The notes: generated by a model from the sequence alone, not told the origin. Positions 12,178-16,212 are shown, numbered from the stretch's first letter. The stretch: 23,775 bases of DNA from a virus (IMGVR_UViG_2541047805_000001), one strand, 5' to 3'. Translations and numbers: made by a program.

Positions 12178-12208
12178 ATGATTTTTGCTGAAGATGGCGA
12201 CATGATGT

Positions 12209-12237
12209 TTGCATTTTTCAAAAAATATGGATAAAAT
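12209..12237 (+). promoter_or_regulatory. pR'-like late promoter
   Basis: TTGCAT-N17-TAAAAT just downstream of quuQ and about 45 nt upstream of a strong terminator, the arrangement expected for Q-dependent antitermination. Confidence 0.5.
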
Positions 12238-12282
12238 TTTTTCAACGATGGGCTTTGTATACCCGACGTTAAGAAAAAGTAG

Positions 12283-12310
12283 AAAACCCGCTGATGAGCG
12301 GGTTTTGTGC
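12283..12310. terminator. Rho-independent terminator (tR'-like), probably bidirectional
   Basis: AAAACCCGCtgatgaGCGGGTTTT perfect hairpin flanked by A/T runs on both sides. Lies between quuQ (+) and the 3' end of cspF (-). Confidence 0.7.
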
Positions 12311-12598
12311 TTTAAATGGGGCAATGGTAATGTTGAATCTCATCCCGGGACTCATGTCTGTTAACTTATTATTTAGCTGGTGACTTGGTTATTTGCCTGA
12401 TGTTTAAAATGTTTTCTTCCAGTACAATGTCCCTAAACACAATGAGTCTGCTTATTATATTATTAGCAGAGCTATTACGGCCAAAGTACAGCATAAGCTT
12501 TTAAAGCCAATCAACCAGTCATCAAGACAGACGGGGTTATTCATAAAAACTCTCCATGTGTGATCCGATGGGGCCTGAAATTAAAGCTTTAATATAGC

Positions 12599-12811
12599 TC
12601 ATGAAAGGTAAACATTGGCAGCTGAAGGGCCACGCAGACCATTTATCCGGCAAAATTCCACGCGTAATCCGGTGGTAATTTCTTCTGCATCGCGGAGATT
12701 GAGCGCTGAAACATGAAGCTGGACATCGATACGACCATCGGATGGGGTGATAAGACCCTTGCCGCTTTTGCCGTCAAAGGTTTTGACAATTCCTGTCATT
12801 TTACGGGACAA
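12599..12811 (-). CDS. cspF: Cold-shock protein CspF (70 aa)
   Basis: [70 protein letters not shown]; CspA-family OB fold lacking the canonical RNP aromatic residues, as in CspF. Confidence 0.85.
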
Positions 12812-13111
12812 AAAAATTCCTTAATACTGATAACTTGGCGCACTATACACACGTTCCTGAAGAAAGCTATAGTTTTTTGATGGGGTTGAAGATGGCTGGA
12901 TGTCTAAAATAAACATTGCTTCATATGTTCAACTATGCGTTAATGATTGCGTCGGTTTGAAGAACAGACGATATACGAAGTAGTTTACTAAAGCAGTTCT
13001 CATTTCAGGTGTTATTCACTTATTCCTTCTTTGAGTCTCTCCAATTAAGTACGAAGTCGTTTCTGTTATGCAAACCATTTATGCCGAAAGGCTCAAGTTA
13101 AGGAATGTAGA

Positions 13112-13327
13112 ATGTCAAATAAAATGACTGGTTTAGTAAAATGGTTTAACGCTGATAAAGGTTTCGGCTTTATTTCTCCTGTTGATGGTAGTAAAGATGT
13201 GTTTGTGCATTTTTCTGCGATTCAGAATGATAATTATCGAACCTTATTTGAAGGTCAAAAGGTTACCTTCTCTATAGAGAGTGGTGCTAAAGGTCCTGCA
13301 GCAGCAAATGTCATCATTACTGATTAA
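13112..13327 (+). CDS. cspB: Cold-shock protein CspB (71 aa)
   Basis: [71 protein letters not shown], with RNP1/RNP2 motifs. Long 5' leader upstream. Confidence 0.9.
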
Positions 13328-13607
13328 AATTCATCGCTCGTCTGTATACGATAACGAAGAAGGCTGATGCCTGAGTAGAGATACGGACAGAGTAGTGAAT
13401 ATTGGATTTCTTTAATAAAAATTAAGGAGGTCCAATACATGAAACAATGGCCAGCATATTTGGCAAAATCTTAATCAGGAAAAGTATGCTAACCATTGTG
13501 GTGAAGTGCAGGTTTGCTGCATGAATAGTTTTACAGCAGAAGCTAACTGCTGGCATGGCAAAACAAAGTGCGTAAGTGGATGACTCCCACAAAAAGCACC
13601 ACAATCT

Positions 13608-13632
13608 CAAACCCGCTCAGGCGGGTTTTTTA
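13608..13632 (+). terminator. Rho-independent terminator downstream of cspB
   Basis: AACCCGCtcagGCGGGTT hairpin followed by TTTTTTATT. Confidence 0.65.
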
Positions 13633-13690
13633 TTATCTGCTTTAAATATATTATTAAAATATAAAAAATACTTGTTACTAATAAAATCAA

Positions 13691-13861
13691 TCAGGCTACA
13701 GCTTTAAGATTTGTCTGGAATACTTTGTTGCAATGAGGGCAGATCAAAAGGGCACCTTTTTGTACTCTTGAAAAACTGTGTTCTGACTCTTGGGTGCAGT
13801 TTGGGCAGGAACATTTAACGAGATAATTACGGCGTGATTTTGAGTCTTTACGTTCTGACAT
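13691..13861 (-). CDS. Small zinc-ribbon protein (56 aa)
   Basis: MSERKDSKSRRNYLVKCSCPNCTQESEHSFSRVQKGALLICPHCNKVFQTNLKAVA has a CxCPxC...CPHC motif. Start taken at the internal Met of ORF 13691..13912. May correspond to a small protein annotated in K-12 Qin, but I cannot confirm the name. Confidence 0.45.
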   Translation of the reverse strand: MSERKDSKSRRNYLVKCSCPNCTQESEHSFSRVQKGALLICPHCNKVFQTNLKAVA

Positions 13862-14080
13862 AGGCTTTTCCTGTATAAATGGCCGTATACAGTACACTAA
13901 ATATGAAAACATTTCTCGTATTATTATTTTATATATGACTTTCTTTCAAAATAATTACTCACATTTTTAATGTGTATGTTTCTTTAGCGCCGTTGAGAAC
14001 AGCGTGTGCTGTCAAAACTACCCCGTAGACTCCGATCTTTTCAAACATATTGCACCATCCGTGTACATCGGGGTGAGGAT

Positions 14081-14296
14081 ATGAAATCAATGGATAAGTT
14101 AACAACAGGTGTTGCCTATGGCACATCGGCGGGTAATGCTGGTTTCTGGGCATTGCAGTTACTCGATAAAGTAACTCCGTCACAGTGGGCTGCAATCGGT
14201 GTGCTGGGTAGCCTGGTTTTTGGCCTGCTGACGTATCTGACAAATCTTTATTTCAAGATTAAAGAAGACAGGCGTAAGGCTGCGAGAGGAGAGTAA
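14081..14296 (+). CDS. essQ: Phage-21-type pinholin, S21-like (71 aa) with dual-start motif
   Basis: [82 protein letters not shown]. Met1/Met4 dual start typical of S21 antiholin/holin. Confidence 0.85.
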
Positions 14297-14300
14297 TCCA

Positions 14301-14612
14301 ATGACTCAAGACTATGAACTGGTTGTGAAAGGAGTCCGTAATTTTGAGAATAAAGTTACGGTAACTGTAGCCTTACAGGACAAAGAACGCTTTGACGGTG
14401 AAATTTTTGACCTGGATGTCGCCATGGACCGTGTTGAAGGAGCTGCGCTGGAGTTTTATGAGGCAGCAGCCAGAAGGAGCGTCCGGCAAGTCTTCCTGGA
14501 AGTAGCAGAAAAATTGTCAGAAAAAGTTGAGTCTTATCTGCAGCATCAGTACTCCTTTAAGATTGAAAATCCTGCCAATAAGCACGAGCGTCCTCATCAT
14601 AAATATATATGA
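14301..14612 (+). CDS. ydfR: YdfR (103 aa), function unknown, inside the lysis cassette
   Basis: 103-aa ORF between holin and endolysin; start 4 nt after the essQ stop. Length and position match Qin ydfR. Confidence 0.7.
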   Translation: MTQDYELVVKGVRNFENKVTVTVALQDKERFDGEIFDLDVAMDRVEGAALEFYEAAARRSVRQVFLEVAEKLSEKVESYLQHQYSFKIENPANKHERPHHKYI

Positions 14613-15142
14613 ACACAAAAATCAGATACGGCCTGTCGGCTGCCGTTCTGGCGCTGATTGGTGCTGGCGCATCTGCTCCTCAGATACTTGACCAGTTTCT
14701 GGACGAAAAAGAAGGTAACCACACAATGGCATACCGCGATGGTTCTGGCATATGGACCATCTGTCGGGGTGCCACAGTGGTGGATGGAAAAACCGTTTTT
14801 CCCAATATGAAACTGTCGAAGGAAAAATGCGACCAGGTCAACGCCATTGAGCGTGATAAGGCGCTGGCATGGGTGGAGCGCAATATTAAAGTACCACTGA
14901 CCGAACCACAAAAAGCGGGTATCGCGTCATTTTGTCCCTATAACATTGGCCCCGGTAAGTGTTTCCCGTCGACGTTTTATAAGCGGCTGAATGCTGGTGA
15001 TCGTAAAGGTGCATGCGAAGCGATTCGCTGGTGGATTAAGGATGGCGGACGCGATTGCCGCATTCGTTCAAATAACTGTTACGGTCAGGTTATTCGTCGT
15101 GACCAGGAGAGCGCATTAACCTGCTGGGGGATAGAACAGTGA
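14609..15142 (+). CDS. rrrQ: SAR endolysin, phage-21 R-like lysozyme (177 aa)
   Basis: N-terminal Gly/Ala-rich signal-anchor-release segment ([17 protein letters not shown]) followed by a lysozyme domain. Overlaps the neighbouring genes at both ends. Confidence 0.85.
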
Positions 15143-15636
15143 ATCAGATATTCATGGTGATTTTTCTCGTGTTGTCAGGATTTATCGTCGGAAATGTCTG
15201 GAGCGACAGAGGATGGCAAAAAAAATGGGCGGAACGTGATGCTGCCGCATTATCACAAGAGGTAAATGCTCAATTTGCTGCTCGAATAATTGAACAGGGG
15301 CGAACTATAGCCCGTGATGAGGCTGTTAAAGATGCACAACAGAAATCTGCTGAAATTTCTGCCAGGGCTGCTTATCTGTCTGATAGTGTTAACCAGTTGC
15401 TTGCCGAAGCAAAAAAATATGCCATACGCCTTGACGCAGCGAAGCATACCGCAGATCTTGCCGCTGCCGTCAGAGGCAAAACAACCAAAACCGCCGAAGG
15501 AATGCTCACCAACATGCTCGGAGATATTGCAGCAGAAGCTCAGCTTTATGCTGAAATTGCTGACGAACGCTACATCGCAGGAGTGACTTGTCAACAGATC
15601 TATGAATCTTTAAGAGATAAAAAGCATCAAATGTAG
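15139..15636 (+). CDS. rzpQ: Rz-like inner-membrane spanin (165 aa)
   Basis: N-terminal TM segment ([15 protein letters not shown]) then a coiled-coil-like Ala/Gln-rich region. Start overlaps the endolysin stop. Confidence 0.8.
15332..15586 (+). CDS. rzoQ: Rz1-like outer-membrane lipoprotein spanin (84 aa), embedded in rzpQ in another frame
   Basis: [23 protein letters not shown]... has a lipobox (LTSC) and a Pro-rich mature part. Fully nested in rzpQ, as is typical for Rz/Rz1. Confidence 0.7.
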
Positions 15637-15999
15637 GGTAATATTAAATCGGAACATTTACATCGCGGAATGTAAAATTTAAATAAAAAGGACTCTTCCA
15701 TGAGCCAAAATTCCTGAAATCTTAAGGGTAAGATAAAAGGTCTTAATCAGAATGACACGTTATTATTAATAAATAAAGCTATTCTTTCATTGCTGTGTTT
15801 TTCTTTACAAAAGTAATCCTTGCTATGGGTGGTTAATCATGCGTTAATGGTGTTCTGGTTTGTTACAAATTTATCTGAAGCAGTCATTGTTATAATTTTA
15901 TTATTTGTACCTCTTGAGATTTCCTTGTTGGTTTTTCTCTCTGATATTTTTTTTCGGACCATTCTGCCCAAGGGCTAATTTCTTCAAAAGGTAATAATT

Positions 16000-16212
16000 A
16001 TGTCTAACAAAATGACTGGTTTAGTGAAATGGTTTAACCCTGAAAAAGGTTTTGGTTTCATCACGCCGAAAGATGGCAGCAAAGATGTGTTTGTCCATTT
16101 CTCAGCAATTCAGAGCAACGATTTCAAAACATTAACTGAGAATCAGGAAGTTGAATTTGGTATTGAGAACGGACCTAAAGGTCCTGCCGCTGTTCATGTA
16201 GTGGCGCTTTGA
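16000..16212 (+). CDS. cspI: Cold-shock protein CspI (70 aa)
   Basis: [70 protein letters not shown]. Confidence 0.9.

Follow-up and report, generated by a model that had tools for sequence, protein, structure and literature searches.

Cold-shock genes as autonomous moron cargo in the late-control and lysis region of the Escherichia coli prophage Qin

The region described here lies in a 23,775-nucleotide stretch of viral DNA (IMGVR_UViG_2541047805_000001)—hereafter the window, from whose first letter all coordinates are counted—and holds three cold-shock genes, cspF, cspB and cspI, set among late-control and lysis genes. The window is the Escherichia coli lambdoid prophage Qin (Kim), read as the reverse complement of the cryptic prophage Qin of K-12 MG1655; the two are 99.8% identical over window positions 7308-18807, an 11.5-kb common stretch in which they differ by 23 substitutions and 2 gaps. 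Gene set, order and orientation equal those of MG1655 genes b1552-b1559 (cspI, rzpQ, rrrQ, ydfR, essQ, ynfU, cspB, cspF, ynfS and ydfT). These genes are annotated in K-12, and their cold induction, leaders and prophage location are already published; the region is not a discovery. A prediction made from the sequence alone (the original prediction) had read the three csp genes as morons placed around the late and lysis module, and here we focus on that reading and on how the genes are controlled. The features that carry the argument are as follows.

11425-12177, plus strand: Q antiterminator gene (ydfT)
12209-12252, plus strand: late promoter pR', with pause element
12283-12306, no strand: tR' hairpin
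12307-14054, no strand: cargo slot 1, from tR' to the holin gene, 38.0% G+C
12599-12811, minus strand: cspF, with a cold-shock domain of the CspF/CspH type
12904-12950, plus strand: cspB promoter
12951-13111, plus strand: cspB leader, 161 nucleotides, with cold box and upstream-box hairpin; RNA thermometer
13112-13327, plus strand: cspB
13328-13635, plus strand: cspB 3' region, with pronounced structure and an intrinsic terminator at its end
14081-15636, plus strand: lysis cassette
15637-17191, no strand: cargo slot 2, from the spanin genes to the ydfO/ynfO/nohA block, 34.8% G+C
15808-15854, plus strand: cspI promoter
15855-15999, plus strand: cspI leader, 145 nucleotides, diverged, with upstream-box hairpin; RNA thermometer
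16000-16212, plus strand: cspI

CspF, CspB and CspI each hold one single cold-shock domain of about 70 residues that scores above the Pfam cut-off (CSD, PF00313; 27 bits): 77.8 bits for CspF (E 5.6e-22), 109.1 bits for CspB (E 9.8e-32) and 108.4 bits for CspI (E 1.6e-31). NCBIfam places CspB in the CspA subfamily (144.3 bits against a cut-off of 130) and CspF in the CspF family (160.4 bits against a cut-off of 111), and the third gene is annotated cspI. The predicted trio of CspA-family paralogues is thus in place. The open reading frames of cspF, on the minus strand, and cspB, on the plus strand, diverge from one another 300 bp apart between the Q-pR'-tR' unit and the holin gene, and cspI comes after the spanin pair rzpQ/rzoQ. 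The RNP1 and RNP2 motifs are canonical in CspB and CspI (KGFGFI and VFVHF) and deviant in CspF (SGKGLI and VQLHV), as is typical of the CspF/CspH subgroup. The near-identity of the N-terminal halves of CspB and CspI, also claimed from the sequence, is real—34 of 38 residues are identical over positions 1-38, against 15 of 30 over positions 39-68. CspB is, at 80% identity, closer to CspA than to CspI; judged from these alignments, the N-terminal likeness is that of the RNP1/RNP2 core conserved across the whole family and reflects no special relationship between CspB and CspI.

Each of cspB and cspI has a sigma-70 promoter of its own, composed of an AT-rich upstream tract, a TTGCTN -35 element, a 17-nucleotide spacer and an extended -10 element. 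At cspB, an alignment with the cspA, cspG and cspI promoters sets an AT-rich, UP-like tract before TTGCTT (12916-12921) and TGcGTTAAT (12936-12944); at cspI, the alignment gives TTGCTA (15820-15825) and TGcGTTAAT (15840-15848). The motif ATGCGTTAATG-N(7-8)-GGTTTG, spanning the extended -10 element and the start of transcription, is found at exactly two places in the window, namely these two promoters (the cspI copy, ATGCGTTAATG-N7-GGTTTG, at 15839-15862), where chance would give 0. The upstream-box hairpin TGCCSAARGGCT also occurs exactly twice, at equivalent positions of the cspB and cspI leaders (13083-13092 and 15966-15975). Leader lengths counted from the promoter-implied starts equal the published ones, 161 nucleotides for cspB and 145 for cspI (PMC6719143). 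The Rfam model of the cspA thermoregulator (RF01766; gathering score 78 bits) matches cspB at 158.8 bits (12951-13343) and cspI at 112.8 bits, and the cspB leader without its coding sequence keeps a match of 26.1 bits (E 3.3e-5).

The original prediction called the two 5' leaders unrelated, which holds for the strongly diverged interior of the cspI leader but not for the leaders as wholes. They share the promoter and start motif, the upstream-box hairpin and the predicted stem-loop, and their global alignment beats all 300 dinucleotide shuffles (z 3.7). The published description likewise has the cspI 5' untranslated region as one that "diverges" (PMC13271884). The cspB leader is 82% identical to the leader of cspG (z 16). 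For both leaders, the fold predicted at 37 C is one long stem-loop, in which the 5' part of the leader pairs with the first 35-40 nucleotides of the coding sequence; this stem-loop is predicted to bury the ribosome-binding site and the AUG (z -2.2 for cspB, -2.3 for cspI). Dimethyl sulfate (DMS) probing has established that the cspB, cspG and cspI leaders share this long-stem-loop architecture and are RNA thermometers (PMC13271884). We take the two leaders to be probably homologous at either end, with a diverged middle, and equivalent in function. The length, cold-box-like 5' end, upstream-box hairpin and site-hiding 37 C fold of the cspA/cspB/cspG/cspI leader class are all found in the Qin leaders. 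In the suggested comparison for cold-box-like elements, such a 5' end is present at cspB and cspI, and no leader of this kind is present at cspF. Rfam gives no match for cspF on the minus strand, and only about 100 nucleotides separate the cspF ATG from the cspB -35 element, which leaves no room for a long leader.

In K-12, cspB and cspI are cold-induced (PMC6719143); according to the literature, this induction comes from their own leaders, with the Qin late operon silent. On the basis of this K-12 work, we conclude that each of cspB and cspI is an autonomous unit, induced by cold, whose control lies mainly in its leader. At 37 C, each leader forms one long stem-loop that hides the start codon and the ribosome-binding site; in the cold the leaders refold and translation rises, and leaders of the cspA/B/G type also lose Rho access. 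Temperature-dependent Rho termination has been described in the cspA, cspB and cspG leaders, and the cspI mechanism was left undecided (PMC12360218). Both genes are accordingly expressed on cold shock from a repressed or defective prophage, independently of the phage late operon; cspF, with its altered RNA-binding motifs and lack of a thermosensor leader, belongs with the CspF/CspH subgroup. A second setting is known from long-term stationary phase, in which cspB, cspF, cspI, ynfN and ydfK rise together, and in which loss of cspB or cspI lowers competitiveness (PMC7406224).

The csp genes begin just past a late-control switch of the lambda kind. The Q gene is annotated as antitermination protein Q, matches Pfam PF03589 (E 4.5e-54) and is 33% identical to lambda Q (E 2e-40). 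The -35 element of pR' (TTGCAT, 12209-12214) begins 31 bases past the Q stop codon and is followed, after a 17-nucleotide spacer, by the -10 element TAAAAT (12232-12237) and, six bases past the latter, by the sigma-dependent pause element AACGATGGG (12244-12252). The -10 element and AACGATGGG align column for column with lambda pR', and AACGATGGG is invariant across lambda, mEp460, PhiR47_1 and the window; the promoter is also picked up by a promoter-consensus scan. With a Q homologue, a promoter with a pause element and a nearby terminator all present, antitermination is predicted.

The tR' hairpin, found by a terminator scan, has a G+C-rich stem of 10 bp and closes the conserved Q module. 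After the stem, the window reads TTTTGTGCTTT, and mEp460 and PhiR47_1 read T7—the junction between Q module and cargo falls exactly at the 3' end of the stem, and the T tract has thereby been shortened to TTTTGTGCTTT. On the minus strand, too, a T-rich tail follows the hairpin (CTACTTTTTC), which suggests that tR' is a bidirectional terminator common to the pR' and cspF-ynfS transcripts, and so is probably the 3' end of the latter as well. In the prophage state, tR' would halt a short basal pR' transcript, predicted at ~65 nucleotides, and probably also cspF-ynfS transcription arriving from the opposite side. The basal pR' transcript of lambda is 194 nucleotides long. To transcribe the holin gene in inducible relatives such as PhiR42_1, the Q-modified polymerase would have to pass tR' and then 1.8 kb of cargo: first cspF (antisense), then cspB with its terminator at 13609-13628 (sense) and last ynfU (antisense); during lytic growth, cspB would therefore additionally belong to the late transcript. 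As a separate observation on the protein, Qin Q has a 48-residue insertion relative to lambda Q, with extra CxxCxGxG zinc-finger-like repeats that match Pfam DnaJ_CXXCXGXG (E 1.3e-8).

The boundaries of the two cargo slots were drawn by comparison with related phages. For slot 1, BLAST alignments with mEp460 and PhiR47_1 show a Q-pR'-tR' unit that is 89% identical to that of the window up to exactly position 12306, and homology in the holin-ydfR-lysozyme segment that resumes at 14055-14069, just 5' of the holin gene. Between these limits, the window has ynfS-cspF, cspB and ynfU; in the same place mEp460 has two small open reading frames and a DNA methyltransferase gene, and PhiR47_1 has one open reading frame and four tRNA genes. 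For slot 2, homology to the DUF2514 spanins of N15-type phages stops at 15591-15617, and homology to the lambda-type right arm resumes at 17192, just past the gnsB terminator; the interval holds cspI-ynfQ-ynfR-ynfN-gnsB here and bor in lambda. Both cargo blocks, at 38.0% and 34.8% G+C, differ in composition from Q (47.8%) and the lysis genes (46.9%). The cargo thus varies between relatives by presence and absence with sharp junctions and has a base composition of its own; by sequence it also has its own promoters and terminators (13609-13628, 16420-16440 and 17086-17107 in the terminator scan), whose function is known from the literature only.

The csp cargo is also found outside E. coli chromosomes. 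PhiR42_1, deposited as a complete phage genome, carries it with 99.6% identity over 7 kb, and Tritos, HannyBb, 2H10 and PhiR63_1 carry csp cargo at the same sites; furthermore, the rzpQ-cspI segment is present in the database entry of an evolved derivative of mEp460. Since PhiR42_1, Tritos, HannyBb and 2H10 carry equal csp cargo, the label "moron" is fair, and the original prediction stands on this point. Both slots have counterparts in known systems: Stx phages keep stx or tRNA genes between Q/tR' and S, the equivalent of slot 1, and bor of lambda lies 3' of Rz, in the equivalent of slot 2. Like other lambdoid morons, the Qin cargo is AT-rich, has its own expression signals, sits at module junctions of the late region and is missing from close relatives. 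It differs in content, consisting of cold-shock-domain proteins and small cold-associated proteins where other morons encode toxins, tRNAs or a serum-resistance lipoprotein. Our literature search found no paper that ties the term "moron" to cold-shock proteins in lambdoid prophages.

We hold with high confidence that this is Qin's late-control and lysis module with two AT-rich moron blocks at classical lambdoid cargo sites, and that its csp units are autonomous and cold-expressed. Several points weigh against this reading. The promoter-consensus scan is not enriched, with 13 sites against 17.3 expected in shuffles; we dropped this generic scan as evidence, and the promoter assignments consequently rest on alignment to characterised csp promoters. 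The cspI leader without its coding sequence has no Rfam cspA match at E<=10, so that the full-length score of cspI is carried by the coding part; internally, this leader is too diverged from the RF01766 class to be recognised without coding sequence, and the status of cspI as a thermometer rests on published probing rather than homology. Further, cspF lacks a cspA-type leader and is generally not counted as cold-inducible, CspF and CspH being separate in status (PMC6719143). Nor does cspI have its own terminator—it heads a cspI-ynfQ(-ynfR-ynfN) unit and shares a terminator with ynfQ. The expression evidence comes from K-12, to whose Qin the window is 99.8% and not fully identical, and Q-dependent read-through across the cargo would follow by analogy with lambda biology. 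Lastly, gnsB is linked to cold by a multicopy phenotype and not by induction, and our literature search found no direct record of cold induction of ynfN or gnsB. Taken as a whole, the original prediction is confirmed in part as an observation (gene content and layout, but not the unrelated leaders), and its moron interpretation is supported.

Three other explanations have to be considered. The best survivor would give the cargo a use for the phage itself besides lysogenic conversion: CspB, made from the Q-antiterminated transcript, and CspI, made from its own promoter, would act as RNA chaperones or antiterminators that sustain late transcription and translation in the cold. The sense orientation of cspB directly 3' of Q-pR'-tR', the retention of the csp trio in several deposited phage genomes and the names of the nearest NCBIfam families ("RNA chaperone/antiterminator CspA" and "transcription antiterminator CspE") are in keeping with such a role. 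However, it has no experimental support, close relatives manage with no csp gene at these sites, CspA, CspE and CspG are available from the host anyway, and the 37 C leader fold would still mask the cspB start codon within a longer late transcript; we consider this role improbable.

Far less probable is the proposal that the csp genes are ordinary Q-dependent members of the late operon, expressed in no other way and serving lytic growth only. It is true that cspB and cspI lie on the late-gene strand downstream of pR', and we saw no convincing separate holin promoter between cspB and essQ, so that the late transcript must cross cspB. Against this stand the complete cspA-type promoters and leaders of published lengths at both genes, the intrinsic terminator 3' of cspB, the position of cspF and ynfU on the opposite strand and the response of both cspB and cspI to cold in K-12, whose Qin is defective and has a silent late operon. 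Equally remote is the view that these are host chromosomal genes caught in a decaying prophage by rearrangement rather than phage cargo—a paralogous cspH-cspG-ymcF-ymcE-gnsA block does lie outside any recognisable prophage in essentially all E. coli, but complete phage genomes carry cspF-cspB and cspI at matching positions with 93-99.6% identity, the cargo limits coincide with lambdoid module junctions, and of the complete E. coli genomes only about 30% have the block, a frequency that fits prophage cargo.

The remaining genes and signals of the two slots, the lysis cassette between them and the distal gene ydfK are listed below.

12455-12544, minus strand: ynfS, small protein of 29 residues, translation identical to published YnfS
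13691-13861, minus strand: ynfU, small zinc-ribbon protein (Pfam YnfU, E 2.5e-31; NCBIfam NF038384)
14081-14296, plus strand: essQ, holin of the P21 type
14301-14612, plus strand: ydfR
14609-15142, plus strand: rrrQ, lysozyme
15139-15636, plus strand: rzpQ, i-spanin
15332-15586, plus strand: rzoQ, o-spanin embedded in rzpQ, its translation with the lipobox LTSC
16223-16411, plus strand: ynfQ, ymcF-like (Pfam YmcF-like, E 6.9e-32)
16414-16479, plus strand: ynfR, translation matching published YnfR
16420-16440, plus strand: hairpin GCTCC-TTCG-GGAGC with T6, after the ynfQ stop codon and inside the ynfR reading frame
16484-16714, plus strand: ynfN, distal gene of the cspI unit
16886-17107, plus strand: annotated gnsB (16886-17059) with its terminator (17086-17107, terminator scan)
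21475-21708, minus strand: ydfK

The lysis cassette (essQ, ydfR, rrrQ and rzpQ with rzoQ) is identified by Pfam matches to P21-type holin, DUF1327, Phage_lysozyme and DUF2514. The small genes ynfN, gnsB and ydfK do lie further on, as the original prediction had them, with ydfK at the far end of the prophage, another 5 kb on past the tail-fibre and pin genes. RefSeq names the ydfK product "cold shock protein YdfK"; the literature search for its cold induction found nothing direct. Overproduction of GnsB raises unsaturated fatty acids and rescues low-temperature growth defects. A cold induction of gnsB and ynfN is otherwise suggested only by RefSeq product names and K-12 transcriptome studies. 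YnfR protein rises strongly on cold shock (PMC6001520); its synthesis would need read-through of a terminator, because ynfR spans the terminator-like hairpin at 16420-16440. Residue 12 of YnfR is I in the window and V in the published K-12 protein.

The cspB 3' region has its own structural features. The fold of 13328-13645 has a minimum free energy of -103.6 kcal/mol (z -6.3 against shuffles), and a long imperfect hairpin lies directly 3' of the cspB stop codon. A hairpin of 15-16 bp (13403-13436) buries the sequence AAGGAGG (13424-13430), 9 nucleotides 5' of an unannotated 11-codon open reading frame (13440-13475; MKQWPAYLAKS), after which comes the intrinsic terminator of cspB, a stem at 13609-13628 with a T run, as given by the terminator scan. 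No Rfam family matched the region; a Trp_leader candidate was rejected as sub-threshold (21.7 bits, E 0.59; gathering score 41). We also sought diverged copies of the region from cspB 3' to ynfU, but almost all of about 1,620 E. coli copies are at least 95% identical, too alike to be of use for covariation analysis.

In a megablast search, the 4.4-kb stretch around the csp and lysis genes is 100% identical in many E. coli chromosomes, annotated as ydfT(Q)/cspF/cspB/ynfU/essD/ydfR/rrrQ/rzpQ/cspI, and at least 80% of it is present in ~1,594 of 5,426 complete E. coli genomes (about 30%). Compared with K-12 Qin, the window comes from another strain: segments 1179-3362, 6851-7307 and 18808-19256 have no match to MG1655 Qin, the central part of stfQ differs, and the IS2E insertion of K-12 is missing, which leaves the exonuclease region apparently more intact. 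Even so, the window has the nohA-stfQ fusion that is characteristic of the defective K-12 prophage. Rfam searches also gave a match to the small RNA DicF (76.7 bits; 4773-4824, minus strand) and a candidate for IS009 RNA (226.7 bits; 20238-20436, plus strand) inside the tail-fibre-assembly gene region; no tRNA genes were found in the window. Lambdoid phages that infect the host are known to recombine with Qin (PMC3945230).

The chromosomal cspH-cspG-ymcF-ymcE-gnsA locus resembles the Qin cargo in arrangement—cspH and cspG diverge like cspF and cspB, and cspG-ymcF...gnsA parallels cspI-ynfQ...gnsB. In contrast to the cargo, the chromosomal block is contiguous, has no lysis cassette between its halves, is not part of a recognisable prophage and occurs in almost every E. 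coli. Positions 1968-3242 of the extracted MG1655 cspH-gnsA locus align with window segments 12603-13226 (cspF to the 5' part of cspB), 15996-16359 (cspI-ynfQ) and 16868-17060 (gnsB), with 73-76% DNA identity to the head of slot 1, the tail of slot 2 and gnsB. At the level of the locus this is a mosaic, in which the cspG leader resembles that of cspB (82%), and the cspG coding sequence and the genes after it resemble the cspI side; when cspA serves as outgroup, the cspG coding sequence has 13 derived sites in common with cspI and 4 with cspB. We rejected cspG as a chimera of cspB and cspI joined in mid-gene, with p = 0.20 in a maximum chi-square breakpoint test over 51 informative coding sites. 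A crossover inside the coding sequence is also unsupported—the derived sites are spread over all of it without trend (Mann-Whitney p 0.39).

One origin for this locus would be recombination of cspB with its same-strand paralogue cspI, at the beginning of the coding sequence or close to it, which would delete ynfU and the whole lysis cassette and leave a promoter and leader of the cspB type fused to a coding sequence and tail of the cspI type. That the chromosomal block is a fossil of a Qin-type late region made in this way seems to us doubtful; an ancestral intact block, of which Qin keeps two partial copies, fits the cspG-locus data equally well. If the deletion-fusion were true, one major cold-shock locus of E. 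coli would be domesticated phage cargo.

The csp cargo of Qin opens no long-standing question, and the residual interest lies in the evolutionary tie to the cspG locus and in whether phage-borne Csp proteins benefit lytic growth in the cold. What the region provides is a clean worked example of lambdoid late-region cargo sites filled with host-beneficial genes—one in which the cargo junction falls exactly at the T tract of tR', and in which cold-shock paralogues travel on deposited complete phage genomes.

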